This document shows, in pieces, positions 3,640 to 62,328 of a stretch of 64,000 nucleotides of DNA. The position numbers and the translations under genes are program-made. The stretch comes from Escherichia coli O157:H7 (lineage in GTDB: Bacteria; Pseudomonadota; Gammaproteobacteria; Enterobacterales; Enterobacteriaceae): the NCBI RefSeq assembly GCF_013167455.1, contig NZ_CP038328.1. One strand, given 5' to 3'. The number at the start of each line of letters is the position of its first letter. Positions within the stretch are counted from its first letter, which is position 1. A model generated the notes under the pieces. It was not told the origin of the DNA. It was given only the letters and a program-made list of their open reading frames with translations, and ran no database searches.

Positions 3640-3677
3640 AAACTGGAAAACCTGGCGTCGTCATCTATTCTTAAAGG
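3640..3677 (+). promoter_or_regulatory. Sigma-S-type promoter of sdsR
   Basis: TCTATTCT (-10 TATTCT with upstream C) ending 6 nt before the SdsR 5' end. Confidence 0.45.
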
Positions 3678-3780
3678 GCAAGGCAACTAAGCCTGCATTA
3701 ATGCCAACTTTTAGCGCACGGCTCTCTCCCAAGAGCCATTTCCCTGGACCGAATACAGGAATCGTGTTCGGTCTCTTTTT
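3678..3780 (+). ncRNA. sdsR: Small regulatory RNA SdsR (RyeB)
   Basis: Sequence GCAAGGCAACTAAGCCTGCATTAATGCC...GTTCGGTCTCTTTTT matches remembered SdsR; ends in a hairpin (GACCGAA/TTCGGTC) plus T-tract; lies in the yebY-pphA intergenic region as in K-12. Confidence 0.75.
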
Positions 3781-3914
3781 ATCTGTTAAAAGCCAGAAGC
3801 ATTTCCTTCGCTGACTTTATAGTCAACCATAACACACACTCTACTGTCTGAGTCCAGCGTTTTTTAACATTCTTGTTAAGATTATGTGATCTTTAGCGCG
3901 GGAGGAAAATATTG

Positions 3915-18625: not shown

Positions 18626-19293
18626 TCCTTCCTCAATCTTGAGTAACCCCGTCGTTGAAGGGTTACTCAATTCATCCTGATTATACGCACTGTCATGGTG
18701 CAACTGCTTCAAATTAAAACTCTGGTCTGACTTCAAATAATTATCATATTATTTATTTGCGTAACGGGATATCAGAAAAAGATATTTACCCCATTAATTT
18801 ATTAGGATGTTTACATCGGATTTGTGATTAAGCGTGGTATTATTTATTAGCGAAACGTTTCTCTCTTGATTTTTTTTGCTTATTCATCAATTTTTCTTAT
18901 TTTAAATTTCCAATTCCTTTGGGATTGACTTCTCTTTGGGGTGATTGAGAGCCGTTAACTGCCTGTTTTATGAGAAAAAGTGATATAACTTTTTATTCAT
19001 TGCATAGCAGAAAATGTGATATTGCACGCACTATGTAATAACTTCTCCCACTGACCTGGAACAACTGAACTTATTGAACTATGTTAGAAACTACGTCAGT
19101 TTAAGTATCTGCGGAACTGACAAGGTTAAGCACAATGATATATCGGCGCGTATTCCGTTGCATAAGTGTGCAAAAAAAGTGGAAGACGTATCGAGATTTG
19201 TGCGTCTGATCGAGACATGTTTAAAAATGGCTTGCCATAATTAACGTTGTATGTGATAACAGATTTCGGGTTAAACGAGGTACAGTTCTGTTT

Positions 19294-19437
19294 ATGTGTG
19301 GCATTTTCAGTAAAGAAGTCCTGAGTAAACACGTTGACGTTGAATACCGCTTCTCTGCCGAGCCTTATATTGGTGCCTCATGCAGTAATGTGTCAGTTTT
19401 ATCTATGTTATGCCTGCGGGCGAAGAAAACAATCTAA
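19294..19437 (+). CDS. yobF: Small protein YobF (47 aa)
   Basis: Read directly: [47 protein letters not shown]; stop 12 nt before cspC start (yobF-cspC operon). Confidence 0.8.
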
Positions 19438-19449
19438 GGAATTTTTCAA

Positions 19450-19659
19450 ATGGCAAAGATTAAAGGTCAGGTTAAGTGGTTCAACGAGTCTAAAGGTTTT
19501 GGCTTCATTACTCCTGCTGATGGCAGCAAAGACGTGTTCGTACACTTCTCCGCTATCCAGGGTAATGGCTTCAAAACTCTGGCTGAAGGTCAGAACGTTG
19601 AGTTCGAAATTCAGGACGGCCAGAAAGGTCCGGCAGCTGTTAACGTAACAGCTATCTGA
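19450..19659 (+). CDS. cspC: Cold-shock-domain protein CspC
   Basis: 69 aa [20 protein letters not shown]... with RNP1/RNP2 motifs. Confidence 0.95.
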
Positions 19660-19703
19660 TCGAATCCACTGATCTGAAGTGTGAATACGCTTCAATCTCG
19701 CTA

Positions 19704-19731
19704 TAAAGCCTCGTCGAATGCGAGGCTTTTT
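19704..19731 (+). terminator. Intrinsic terminator after cspC
   Basis: AAAGCCTCG-TCGAAT-GCGAGGCTTT hairpin followed by T-tract. Confidence 0.7.
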
Positions 19732-19824
19732 ACTATGCTTTATCTTCGCTCCTGGCGTTCGGATATTTGCCCGCCGCGTGATTCGCGTTACACTTGCGGC
19801 CTTTAGTATCCTGCCGGAGTTGTC

Positions 19825-20634
19825 ATGTCGTTTTCCTGTCCACTTTGCCATCAGCCTCTTACGCGTGAAAAAAACAGCTATATCTGTCCCCAACGACATC
19901 AGTTTGATATGGCGAAAGAAGGGTATGTCAATCTGCTGCCCGTTCAGCATAAACGGTCTCGTGATCCGGGCGACAGCGCGGAAATGATGCAAGCACGCCG
20001 CGCATTCTTAGATGCCGGACATTATCAGCCGCTGCGTGATGCAATTGTCGCCCAACTGCGTGAACGGCTTAATGAAAAGGCCACGGCGGTGCTGGATATT
20101 GGCTGTGGTGAAGGGTATTACACACACGCATTTGCCGATGCGTTGCCCGAAATCACCACGTTTGGTCTGGATGTTTCGAAGGTAGCGATAAAAGCGGCGG
20201 CGAAACGCTATCCGCAGGTCACTCTTTGTGTCGCTTCCAGCCACCGTTTGCCGTTTTCCGATACCAGTATGGACGCCATAATACGTATTTACGCGCCGTG
20301 TAAAGCAGAAGAATTAGCACGAGTAGTGAAGCCCGGCGGCTGGGTCATTACTGCCACGCCGGGACCGCGACATTTGATGGAGCTGAAGGGGCTGATTTAC
20401 AATGAAGTACATCTTCATGCACCTCATGCAGAACAACTGGAAGGTTTTACATTACAGAAGAGTGATGAGTTGTGTTATCCGATGCGTCTTCGCGGTGATG
20501 AAGCCGTCGCATTATTGCAGATGACGCCGTTTGCCTGGCGTGCGAAGCCAGAAGTCTGGCAAATACTGGCAGCAAAAGAAGTGTTCGACTGCCAGACGGA
20601 CTTTAATATTCACCTCTGGCAGCGTTCTTATTAA
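19825..20634 (+). CDS. rlmA: 23S rRNA m1G745 methyltransferase RlmA
   Basis: 269 aa; N-terminal Cys4 zinc finger (CPLCHQ...CPQRH) and SAM-methyltransferase fold; stop overlaps mntP stop. Confidence 0.9.
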
Positions 20635-21197
20635 CCGTGGAAGTGCGTCCAGAGGATCTGGACGCCGATGCCGATCAGCACCAGCCCGCCGAGAATTTCC
20701 GCTTTTTTCCCAATAATTGAGCCGATAAAGCGACCAACCATCATCCCTAATGTCGACATAATCAAGGTTGCACAACCAATGGCCAATGCGGTCGCGATAA
20801 TGTTGACCTGAAGGAAAGCAAGACCAACACCCACAGCCATGGCATCCAGGCTGGTGGCAATCGCGGTGGTTACCAGTAGCCAGAAACCGTGCCGACGGCG
20901 CGGCTCTTCATCTTCATCATCTGCGCCACGAAAACCCTCAATAATCATTCGCCCGCCGAGGAATATCAGCAGCACAAACGCAATCCAGTGATTCCATTCA
21001 AGGACAAACCGGCTGGCTAACATGCCCATTCCCCAGCCGATCAGCGGCGTCAGGGTTTCGACGGCACCAAAAATAAGGCCGGTTCGCAATGCTTCAGAAA
21101 ATTTCGGTTTATGGAGGGTGGCACCTTTACCGATTGATGCAGCAAATGCATCCATCGACATACCAAACGCAAGAAGAACAGTAGCAGTGATATTCAT
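20631..21197 (-). CDS. mntP: Manganese efflux pump MntP
   Basis: Track ORF trimmed to ATG 21197 ([25 protein letters not shown]..., 188 aa); the upstream in-frame extension is leader RNA, not protein. Confidence 0.9.
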
Positions 21198-21432
21198 GAC
21201 AACGTCCTGACCGGGGTATCCATAAAACACATCATCGCCCCCAGCAAACATGCATACATGAACAACAAGCCGCGATGGGTTTTCGCGTTCATGCAGGCAT
21301 AGCGATTGATGTGCATATGGTCTCGCCTGACTGAAAGTCTTCAGTCCGTACGTGCCACGTTTTGCAACGAGTATGTTGACACGTACATTTCCGGAATCTG
21401 GAAATTGGCTACTCCCCAAATGAGGGCGCAAC
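21198..21432 (-). promoter_or_regulatory. mntP 5' leader containing a yybP-ykoY-class Mn2+ riboswitch
   Basis: Minus strand reads TTTGGGGAGTAGCC (plus 21405-21418) and a downstream GGCGAGACC element, the hallmark conserved loops of this riboswitch class, in the long leader of a Mn exporter. Confidence 0.65.
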
Positions 21433-21626
21433 CTTAACATATTTTGAGAATATAAAACAACTGTTGGAATATATTATTTTATTGCTTTGTTGATAACGAT
21501 TTTCATTTAGATTTATATATCAATGAAACGTTATAATAAATAACAAATAAGGGAAGAGGTAATATAGCCTAAGCTATGTCTGATTATTAAAAATACACTA
21601 AACATAGCTTTGGCTAAATTAATAAC

Positions 21627-22085
21627 TCATTGAGTTGAAACGAGAAGTTTATAAATTCTTTCCAGATCGTCGATATTTCGAACGCGGATTAACAGCCGAC
21701 GCTGTTCTAATTGCATCACCAACACGCCATCTTCCGACAAGTTCATCGCTTTGATTCGGCTATATTCAATCCAGACATTGGCGAAGAAAAAACCTTTTTG
21801 TTTAAAGATGATCTTCGGAACGCGGATCCAGAATATATAAAAACCCATCAGAGCCAGTGCGCTTAATAACCATGTCGTTATTAACGCACCATGATTCGTG
21901 ACGTTGTTATAGATAAGAATGACAATCAATCCGACGAAGATAACGCTATCGATGCGACCACGCCGGAGCAAAGGAATTGCCAGCAGGGTGGGGCCGTTAC
22001 GGCGGGGCATGATGAACTGATCGTAGATCGCGAAGGCCAGGAGTGCGGCGATGAAAAGAATCAGTACCAGGTCCGTGATTGTCAT
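21627..22085 (-). CDS. yobD: UPF0266 inner-membrane protein YobD
   Basis: 152 aa, 3-4 TM helices; K-12 position between mntP and manZ. Confidence 0.85.
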
Positions 22086-37139: not shown

Positions 37140-38825
37140 TTGAAGAAGGTTTGGCTTAACCGTTATCCCGCGGACGTTCCGACGGAGATCAACCCTGACC
37201 GTTATCAATCTCTGGTAGATATGTTTGAGCAGTCGGTCGCGCGCTACGCCGATCAGCCTGCGTTTGTGAATATGGGGGAGGTGATGACCTTCCGCAAGCT
37301 GGAAGAACGCAGTCGCGCGTTTGCCGCTTATTTGCAACAAGGGTTGGGGCTGAAGAAAGGCGATCGCGTTGCGTTGATGATGCCTAATTTATTGCAATAT
37401 CCGGTGGCGCTGTTTGGCATTTTGCGTGCCGGGATGATCGTCGTAAACGTTAACCCGTTGTATACCCCGCGTGAGCTTGAGCATCAGCTTAACGATAGCG
37501 GCGCATCGGCGATTGTCATTGTGTCCAACTTTGCTCACACGCTGGAAAAAGTGGTCGATAAAACCGCAGTTCAGCACGTTATCCTGACCCGTATGGGCGA
37601 TCAGCTTTCCACAGCGAAAGGCACACTGGTTAACTTCGTTGTTAAATACATCAAACGTCTGGTGCCGAAATATCATCTGCCAGATGCCATTTCATTTCGT
37701 AGCGCCCTGCACAACGGCTACCGTATGCAGTATGTCAAACCTGAACTGGTGCCAGAAGATTTAGCCTTCCTGCAATACACTGGCGGCACCACAGGTGTGG
37801 CGAAAGGCGCGATGCTGACTCACCGCAATATGCTGGCGAACCTGGAACAAGTTAACGCTACGTATGGGCCTCTGCTGCATCCGGGCAAAGAGCTGGTGGT
37901 GACGGCGCTGCCGCTGTATCACATTTTTGCACTGACCATTAACTGCCTGCTGTTTATCGAACTGGGTGGGCAGAACCTGCTTATCACTAACCCGCGGGAT
38001 ATTCCGGGGCTGGTCAAAGAGCTGGCGAAATATCCGTTTACCGCTATCACCGGCGTAAACACCTTGTTCAACGCGTTGCTGAACAATAAAGAGTTTCAAC
38101 AACTGGATTTCTCCAGTCTGCACCTTTCTGCAGGCGGTGGGATGCCTGTTCAGCAAGTGGTGGCAGAACGCTGGGTGAAACTGACCGGACAGTATCTGCT
38201 GGAAGGTTATGGCCTGACCGAATGTGCGCCGCTGGTCAGCGTGAACCCCTATGATATTGATTATCATAGCGGTAGCATTGGTTTGCCGGTGCCGTCGACG
38301 GAAGCCAAACTGGTGGATGACGACGATAATGAAGTATCGCCAGGTCAGCCAGGTGAACTTTGCGTCAGAGGTCCACAGGTGATGCTGGGCTATTGGCAGC
38401 GTCCGGATGCTACCGATGAAATCATCAAAAACGGCTGGTTACACACTGGCGACATCGCGGTAATGGATGAAGAAGGATTCCTGCGCATTGTCGATCGTAA
38501 AAAAGACATGATTTTGGTTTCCGGTTTTAACGTCTATCCCAACGAGATTGAAGATGTCGTCATGCAGCATCCTGGCGTACAGGAAGTCGCGGCTGTTGGT
38601 GTACCTTCCGGCTCCAGTGGTGAAGCGGTGAAAATCTTCGTAGTGAAAAAAGATCCATCGCTTACCGAAGAGTCACTGGTGACCTTTTGCCGCCGTCAGC
38701 TCACGGGCTACAAAGTACCGAAGCTGGTGGAGTTTCGTGATGAGTTACCGAAATCTAACGTCGGAAAAATTTTGCGACGAGAATTACGTGACGAAGCGCG
38801 CGGCAAAGTGGACAATAAAGCCTGA
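37140..38825 (+). CDS. fadD: Long-chain fatty acyl-CoA synthetase FadD (TTG start)
   Basis: AMP-binding motif [12 protein letters not shown]; start at TTG 37140 preceded by GAGGTG Shine-Dalgarno gives the recalled 561 aa ([14 protein letters not shown]...); track ATG 37074 is an over-extension. Confidence 0.9.
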
Positions 38826-38842
38826 GCGTTAAGTCAGTCGTC

Positions 38843-38870
38843 AGACGCCGGTTAATCCGGCGTTTTTTTT
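38843..38870 (+). terminator. Intrinsic terminator after fadD
   Basis: ACGCCGG-TTAA-TCCGGCGT hairpin followed by TTTTTTTT. Confidence 0.75.
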
Positions 38871-61473: not shown

Positions 61474-62328
61474 ATGCAACAAAAAATGATTCAATTTAGT
61501 GGCGATGTCTCACTGCCAGCCATAGGGCAGGGAACATGGTATATGGGCGAAGATGCCAGTCAGCGCAAAACAGAAGTTGCTGCACTACGCGCGGGCATTG
61601 AACTCGGTTTAACCCTCATTGATACCGCCGAAATGTATGCCGATGGCGGTGCCGAAAAGGTGGTTGGGGAAGCATTAACCGGTCTGCGAGAGAAGGTCTT
61701 TCTCGTCTCTAAAGTCTATCCGTGGAATGCTGGCGGGCAAAAAGCGATAAATGCATGCGAAGCCAGTTTACGCCGTCTCAATACTGATTATCTCGATCTC
61801 TACTTATTACACTGGTCTGGCAGTTTCGCTTTTGAAGAGACTGTTGCAGTGATGGAAAAATTGATCGCCCAGGGAAAAATCCGCCGCTGGGGCGTTTCGA
61901 ACCTTGATTATGCTGATATGCAGGAACTCTGGCAGCTGCCGGGGGGAAATCAGTGTGCCACTAATCAGGTGCTTTACCATCTCGGTTCACGAGGGATTGA
62001 GTACGATCTACTCCCCTGGTGCCAGCAACAGCAGATGCCGGTGATGGCTTACAGTCCGTTAGCCCAGGCCGGGCGGTTGCGCAATGGACTGTTAAAAAAC
62101 GCGGTAGTCAACGAAATTGCACATGCTCACAATATCAGCGCGGCGCAAGTATTGTTGGCGTGGGTAATCAGCCATCAGGGTGTGATGGCGATTCCAAAAG
62201 CGGCCACGATTGCCCATGTCCAACAGAATGCGGCTGTGCTTGAGGTCGAACTTTCGTCAGCGGAATTAGCCATGCTGGACAAAGCGTATCCGGCACCAAA
62301 AGGAAAAACTGCGCTGGATATGGTGTGA
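61474..62328 (+). CDS. yeaE: Aldo-keto reductase YeaE
   Basis: 284 aa; AKR fold. Confidence 0.9.
   Translation: MQQKMIQFSGDVSLPAIGQGTWYMGEDASQRKTEVAALRAGIELGLTLIDTAEMYADGGAEKVVGEALTGLREKVFLVSKVYPWNAGGQKAINACEASLRRLNTDYLDLYLLHWSGSFAFEETVAVMEKLIAQGKIRRWGVSNLDYADMQELWQLPGGNQCATNQVLYHLGSRGIEYDLLPWCQQQQMPVMAYSPLAQAGRLRNGLLKNAVVNEIAHAHNISAAQVLLAWVISHQGVMAIPKAATIAHVQQNAAVLEVELSSAELAMLDKAYPAPKGKTALDMV

Follow-up and report, generated by a model that had tools for sequence, protein, structure and literature searches.

The window, as the whole stretch of 64,000 nucleotides analysed is called here, consists of E. coli O157:H7-type DNA; the 1.1 kb around the element described below is 100% identical to O157:H7 chromosomes, and the stretch is found in 5418 of the 5426 complete E. 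coli genomes. On the minus strand, manZ is followed by yobD (22085-21627), a 430-nt intergenic region and mntP, with rlmA converging from the opposite side. The stop codons of the convergent mntP (minus strand) and rlmA (plus strand) overlap by 4 nt at 20631-20634. The mntP leader lies between yobD and mntP, and comprises an aptamer (21423-21313) and an expression platform (21320-21198) that ends at the mntP AUG (21197), all on the minus strand. A preliminary description of this DNA had placed a riboswitch at 21198-21432, which corresponds to the entire leader plus about 5-9 nt 5' of the likely transcription start. Coordinates of the individual features are given in Table 1.

Table 1. Features of the mntP leader and its surroundings, in window coordinates.
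Feature	Coordinates	Strand	Basis or remark
mntP CDS, regulated gene	20631..21197	-	188 aa; Pfam PF02659 Mntp 1.7e-55; RefSeq WP_001296134.1 manganese efflux pump MntP
Two MntR-type palindromes	21562-21579 and 21602-21619		ACATAGC-N4-GCTATGT, <=2 mismatches
Core promoter and transcription start, inferred	21423..21439	-	extended -10-like TGtTAAGGT 21439-21431; +1 between 21427 and 21423
yybP-ykoY Mn2+ aptamer, four-way junction	21313..21423	-	RF00080 match, covariation, RNAalifold
P1.1 5' strand	21423-21416	-	aptamer
L1 5' side	21415-21410 (GGGGAGUAG = 21417-21409)	-	exact motif
P1.2 5' strand	21409-21407	-	aptamer
P2 hairpin	21405-21387	-	aptamer
P3.1	21386-21380 with 21354-21348	-	aptamer
L3	21379-21370 (UCAACAUACU) and 21357-21355	-	aptamer
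P3.2 hairpin	21369-21358	-	aptamer
P4 hairpin	21346-21329	-	aptamer
P1.2 3' strand	21327-21325	-	aptamer
L1 3' side GAGA	21324-21321	-	aptamer
P1.1 3' strand	21320-21313	-	aptamer
Switch strand CCAUAUGCACAUC (P1.1 3' strand plus 5 nt downstream)	21308..21320	-	pairs with P1.1 5' strand or anti-switch strand
Variable body of platform hairpin	21234..21307	-	folding; strain and species alignments
Apical stem-loop CGCG-AAAACCCAU-CGCG	21287-21271	-	polymorphic C-run 21279-21277
CUGGGGG tract, conserved, 5' strand of hairpin B	21244-21238	-	folding, alignment
Anti-switch strand GAUGUGUUUUAUGG	21220..21233	-	fixed ~23 nt 5' of AUG in every species
CCCCGG tract beside SD	21211..21216	-	pairs in hairpin B or helix C; gating role inferred
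mntP ribosome-binding site	21195..21208	-	SD AGGA 21208-21205, 7-nt spacer, AUG 21197-21195
Other Rfam matches	3640-3784; 19274-19734; 38784-38869		Rfam gathering

The transcription start was placed from secondary sources, which disagree by ~4 nt. The UTR in K-12 is 229 nt long (PMC11647493), which, with the 1 nt added in this allele, gives +1 = 21427, and the A11/A48 numbering of PMC12153347 fits +1 = 21423. The -10-like site at 21439-21431 is not listed by the simple promoter scan. An ATG at 21440-21438, from which a longer reading frame runs into mntP (see below), is located upstream of the inferred +1.

Further upstream, in the region that separates the mntP promoter from the end of yobD, the window carries two MntR-type palindromes of the form ACATAGC-N4-GCTATGT. 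These are the only two matches in 64 kb with up to two mismatches (0.18 expected), and together they form a 20-nt inverted repeat, 90% complementary and 22 nt apart, about 140-195 bp upstream of +1. The MntR box with a 3-nt spacer has no match at the locus, and the form with a 4-nt spacer matches twice. The two palindromes are likely to be the sites from which MntR activates the mntP promoter, and they fit the reported activation of mntP by MntR (PMC8632737). Matches to mir-282, mir-355 and similar families at 21550-21631, on both strands, are artefacts of the inverted repeat. A Fur-box-like sequence upstream of the mntP promoter, CTAAATGAAAATCGTTATC (21492-21510, minus strand), agrees at 14/19 positions with the 19-nt Fur consensus, and is not distinctive, as the window offers seven other placements with an equal or better score.

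The two sequence elements by which the yybP-ykoY class had been recognised in the preliminary description, GGGGAGTAG and GAGACC on the minus strand, are located at 21417-21409 and 21324-21319, respectively. GGGGAGTAG occurs twice in the 64 kb, where 0.19 occurrences would be expected. The second exact copy (62008-62016, minus strand) is attributed to chance, with no covariance-model match within 61800-62250. The covariance-model scan that had been suggested as a check gives a divided answer. No match to RF00080 is seen at the gathering threshold when the entire 64-kb window is scanned with Rfam 15, whereas with an E-value threshold on the 551 nt from 21100 to 21650 RF00080 is the top match (21425-21329, minus strand, 40.1 bits, E=1.8e-9; gathering 45). 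The Rfam 15 RF00080 'Manganese' model lacks the P1.1/P1.2 closing pairs, ends at P4 and has a long, poorly matching 3' segment. As the model ends at P4, the 3' strand with GAGACC gains no score. A scan of 20 orthologous leaders found RF00080 as the sole family at E < 0.001 in each of them, with scores of 35.5-57 bits; seven of the 20 reach at least 45 bits, and two Escherichia relatives score 41.9 and 35.5. The orthologous leaders thus straddle the 45-bit cut-off, and the sub-threshold score reflects how the model treats this clade and does not count against the element. The 45-bit gathering score serves as an operational limit and describes no biological property. Elsewhere in the window, gathering-level Rfam matches are seen to SraC/RyeA (minus) and SdsR/RyeB (plus), which form an overlapping antisense pair, to a cspA-thermoregulator-type element and to sroD. 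The cspA-thermoregulator-type match covers a csp gene at 19450-19659, which RefSeq labels cspE.

Species-representative genomes with MntP were scanned, giving 80 Enterobacteriaceae loci, 77 of them with enough upstream DNA. GGGGAGTAG is found 164-223 nt 5' of the mntP ATG in 76/77, and GAGACC is found 75-128 nt 5' in 76/77. The element is thus present 5' of mntP in 76 of the 77 species, and here it directly precedes this gene for a metal (Mn2+) transporter. An alignment of 72 distinct orthologous aptamer sequences was then used, onto which the canonical four-way junction (P1.1, P1.2, P2, P3.1, P3.2 and P4) was mapped. The junction is strongly supported in this alignment: 93.1% of cells are paired, and 18 of 35 pairs are changed on both sides (10.2+-1.3 in shuffles), with none of 500 shuffles reaching any observed measure. 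When the 3' partners are slid by 1-3 columns, pairing falls to 26-48%. Covariation is seen in all seven pairs of P4, in P3.1 GC is exchanged for AU and UA for CG, and the outer part of P1.1 is CAU/AUG in Escherichia and GUC/GAC elsewhere. The same helices are recovered by RNAalifold without an imposed structure. L1 (GGGGAGUAG with the 3' GAGA(CC)) is invariant across the 72 distinct leaders, and the columns of L3 (UCAACAUAC ... UGG) vary little or not at all; they align with high posterior probability to the model consensus GUCAACAUACU. We regard the identity and the structure of the aptamer as demonstrated by these data.

The motifs, the significant though sub-gathering RF00080 match, the covariation, the presence of MntP downstream and the 100% identity to E. 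coli all support the identification of the element as the published mntP Mn2+ riboswitch (PMC12153347, PMC11647493). The central proposal of the preliminary description, a yybP-ykoY Mn2+ riboswitch in the mntP leader, is therefore borne out, and we put at about 95% the probability that 21198-21432 on the minus strand is the E. coli mntP leader carrying a translational ON-type riboswitch of this class. This is already known, published biology: Mn2+ binding and raised expression have been reported for the K-12 allele (PMC12153347, PMC11647493, PMC9603457). In the present work the response to Mn2+ and the effects on translation and on Rho termination are all taken from the literature.

Among known Mn2+ riboswitches, the closest is that of E. 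coli K-12 mntP (yebN), with which the O157-type element shares the locus (yobD-mntP-rlmA), the P1.1 switch helix, the platform helix and the RBS. This K-12 element was reportedly described as a yybP-ykoY Mn2+ riboswitch by Dambach et al. in 2015 (cited in PMC11647493). The two aptamer sequences differ only by single bases, in the P2 junction and in the P4 loop, and overall the O157-type allele differs from K-12 by one extra C in the platform apical loop (21279-21277) and a few loop SNPs, which are expected to make no functional difference. The Mn2+/alkaline-pH riboswitch of E. coli alx (ygjT) is similar in its L1/L3 metal-sensing loops, its P1.1 switch helix and its translational control of a Mn exporter (PMC12153347). 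However, alx has a three-way junction, a multi-helix platform that includes an intrinsic-terminator stem, and pH dependence, whereas mntP combines a four-way junction with only one platform hairpin. Lactococcus lactis yoaB, Bacillus subtilis yybP/ykoY and the Xanthomonas oryzae element, whose aptamers have been crystallised, share the four-way junction, the conserved L1/L3 and ON-type regulation of metal exporters (PMC12153347, PMC8632737). The Firmicute members use intrinsic terminators and antiterminators, whereas mntP has no strong terminator and is controlled translationally with a Rho-dependent layer.

Downstream of the aptamer, the body of the platform hairpin is hypervariable in both sequence and length, the distance from GAGACC to the ATG ranging from 75 to 128 nt between species. 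It is followed by an ATG-proximal block common to all species, which reads CUGGGGGC, (A/G)GUGAUGUGUnnUAUGG, 2-6 nt, CCCCGGUC, AGGAC, 7 nt and AUG. Within this block, AGGA/GGA and ATGAA are kept in 77/77 species, and the RefSeq MntP starts at the same AUG. In the unconstrained MFE structure of nearly every species, the 3' strand of P1.1 pairs with the AUGUGnnUAUGG strand ~23 nt 5' of the AUG, forming what is here called helix A. In a composite alignment, helix A has 13 pairs, with 96.6% paired and five pairs changed on both sides (for example CGCAU/AUGCG, CAUAU/AUAUG and CACGU/ACGUG). As helix A and P1.1 both use one strand, they are mutually exclusive, and we consider this mutually exclusive pairing to be demonstrated as well. 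When each state is forced in turn, the one with helix A is the more stable in all 75 leaders (means -81.0 vs -71.3 kcal/mol for P1.1), and it is usually the free MFE. A helix-A default is as expected for an ON switch that is stabilised by its ligand. In the coordinates used here, the anti-switch strand occupies transcript positions 191-204. The mutually exclusive pairing agrees with co-transcriptional probing, in which the aptamer is complete at ~124 nt, a single platform helix forms, and at ~205 nt strand invasion of P1.1 takes place if Mn is absent (PMC12153347).

Two further pairings involve the CCCCGG tract beside the SD. Hairpin B, formed by CUGGGG and CCCCGG (21238-21244 with 21211-21216), is 99.3% paired with two covarying pairs, and in the Cedecea/Buttiauxella group it takes the compensatory form UUGGGG/CCCCAA. 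Since hairpin B crosses helix A, it is possible only in the aptamer state. Helix C, in which CCCCGG pairs with the freed 5' UUGGGG, is compatible with helix A and is 97.5% paired with no double changes; none are possible, as the 5' UUGGGG strand is fixed by the aptamer.

Taken together with the published work, these pairings suggest the following mechanism. The first ~111 nt of the transcript fold into the four-way-junction aptamer, in which L1 (GGGGAGUAG/GAGA) and L3 (UCAACAUAC) would dock and bind Mn2+, and their docking would stabilise the closing helix P1.1. Without Mn2+, GAUGUGUUUUAUGG, ~23 nt 5' of the start codon, would invade P1.1 and pair with its 3' strand as helix A, lengthening the platform hairpin into what is predicted to be the thermodynamically preferred fold. 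With Mn2+, P1.1 would hold, the invading strand would stay free, and the CUGGGG/CCCCGG tracts could close a local hairpin just 5' of the SD. mntP would then be translated, and the translating ribosomes would shield the transcript from Rho-dependent termination. Mn-dependent translational activation of mntP has been reported (PMC12153347), as has Rho termination in the mntP 5'-UTR and first 147 bp, where bicyclomycin raises mntP mRNA 20-fold and Mn gives partial relief, attributed to restored transcription-translation coupling (PMC11647493); mntP is listed accordingly for Rho termination in PMC12360218.

The last step of this mechanism would be a change in the accessibility of the SD brought about by the toggle between P1.1 and helix A. 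Partition functions for the two forced states in 75 species give SD accessibilities of 0.52 vs 0.46, with ON exceeding OFF in only 40/75, and over -13..+3 there is no difference between the states. A duplex of the freed 5' strand with the SD region (helix C') is 79.7% paired, shows no covariation, does not exceed shuffled controls and was set aside as unsupported. Pairing of the SD with the 5' strand of P2, seen in the equilibrium fold of a single leader, was dropped as the partner of the SD is inconsistent across species. Thus, with SD accessibility alike in both states and the duplex at control level, gating at the RBS is not explained by secondary structure. Published probing likewise finds no Mn-dependent reactivity at the RBS and calls the region dynamic (PMC12153347). 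A tentative and rather doubtful proposal is that the final gating results from a three-way competition for the conserved CCCCGG tract, 2 nt 5' of the SD, instead of from sequestration of the SD in the classical sense. In the Mn2+-bound state this tract would be closed locally by the platform CUGGGG (hairpin B), and in the Mn2+-free state it would be captured by the freed 5' UUGGGG of L1/P1.1 (helix C). Such a capture, if true, would connect the RBS with the 5' end of an extensive closed domain, with initiation reduced or Rho favoured. No published description of the CUGGGG/CCCCGG element was found in the accessible mntP literature.

The same step bears on whether the switch acts mainly on transcription, with the P1.1/helix A toggle directly altering Rho loading or RNA polymerase pausing and the change in translation being secondary. 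The action of Rho in the 5'-UTR and first 147 bp, with its 20-fold bicyclomycin effect and partial relief by Mn (PMC11647493), would fit such a scheme, as would the lack of a Mn-dependent change at the RBS both in the folding described above and in published probing, and the dependence of the response on the speed of the native polymerase (PMC12153347). However, in published work translational fusions show a response to Mn, and the relief from Rho was credited by its authors to restored coupling. We therefore consider a primarily transcriptional switch unlikely; it is compatible with the main explanation and concerns the last step only.

Two other alternatives would make the leader coding, and both turn on a single inserted nucleotide. 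O157-type strains carry one additional C in the loop at the tip of the platform hairpin (C-run 21279-21277, CCC vs CC); BL21, HM670, PAR and D8 are the four strains examined that lack it, and other Escherichia species lack the entire 13-14 nt tip of the stem-loop. The exact 61-mer of the window around the insertion is present in 919 of 5426 E. coli genomes. The stem-loop at 21271-21287, followed by GCUUGUUGUU, is also terminator-like in a simple scan (one found vs 0.6 expected). The preliminary description had noted that the six-frame track shows the leader as an 81-codon extension of MntP, and such an ORF is indeed present: 21440..20631 on the minus strand encodes 269 aa, 81 codons in frame more than the 188-aa MntP. 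If MntP really started at the ATG at 21440, the leader would encode an 81-residue N-terminal extension, and in this genome the frame is open from there to the mntP ATG. The frame is continuous only with the extra C, however, carried by a minority of E. coli, and BL21, HM670, PAR and D8 have 30 open codons upstream. In each of 76 other species the frame is closed, with an open in-frame stretch upstream of 3 to 86 codons, and the spacing between aptamer and ATG changes by lengths not divisible by three. Moreover, the extension has no Pfam match, its ATG would lie 13-17 nt 5' of the +1 that follows from the reported length of the UTR, MntP is 188 aa in RefSeq, and the pattern of conservation is that of paired RNA helices. 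Thus, a noncoding reading of the 81 codons is supported, and we give a translated extension practically no credence. Of the earlier view that the extension is a mis-annotation, the noncoding part stands, given the indel, the lack of conservation and the ATG 5' of the transcription start; the annotation part does not, as the extension is absent from RefSeq, where MntP has 188 aa. What RefSeq/PGAP does annotate, within the expression platform, is a 40-aa hypothetical protein (WP_000547919.1, 21316-21194, minus strand). This 40-codon ORF could be a real leader peptide with translation coupled to that of mntP, as PGAP calls it in those O157-type genomes that carry the extra C, its stop and the mntP start overlap as AUGA in the classical arrangement for coupling, and leader ORFs often modulate Rho, which acts on the mntP leader (PMC11647493). 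Nevertheless, in the four strains examined without the extra C the same ATG gives another product, of 27 aa, whose frame stops 34 nt short of mntP, and the PGAP annotation is absent from them. Outside Escherichia and a few Citrobacter the ATG is missing, other genera having CCATAGA or CCATAGG. In addition, the AUG falls in the 3' strand of P1.1 and is base-paired in both switch states, no SD is recognisable, the upstream bases being the conserved GAGA of L1, and the product has no Pfam match. A literature search found no link of any uORF to mntP. WP_000547919.1 is probably a spurious gene call, and a genuine coupled leader peptide appears very improbable. The leader of this allele is, on the comparative evidence, demonstrably noncoding; the 1-nt loop insertion in O157-type genomes creates long ORFs over it, one of which, of 40 aa, has been accepted by RefSeq.

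RefSeq has no riboswitch feature at the mntP leader. Since RF00080 scores just under gathering there, default Rfam scans, and apparently PGAP too, leave the Escherichia mntP riboswitch unannotated. As a discovery the element is of small value, the mntP Mn2+ riboswitch having been characterised genetically, structurally and kinetically since 2015. The comparative data add covariation support for the switch helix, and the conserved CUGGGG/CCCCGG element could help to settle how the riboswitch gates translation.
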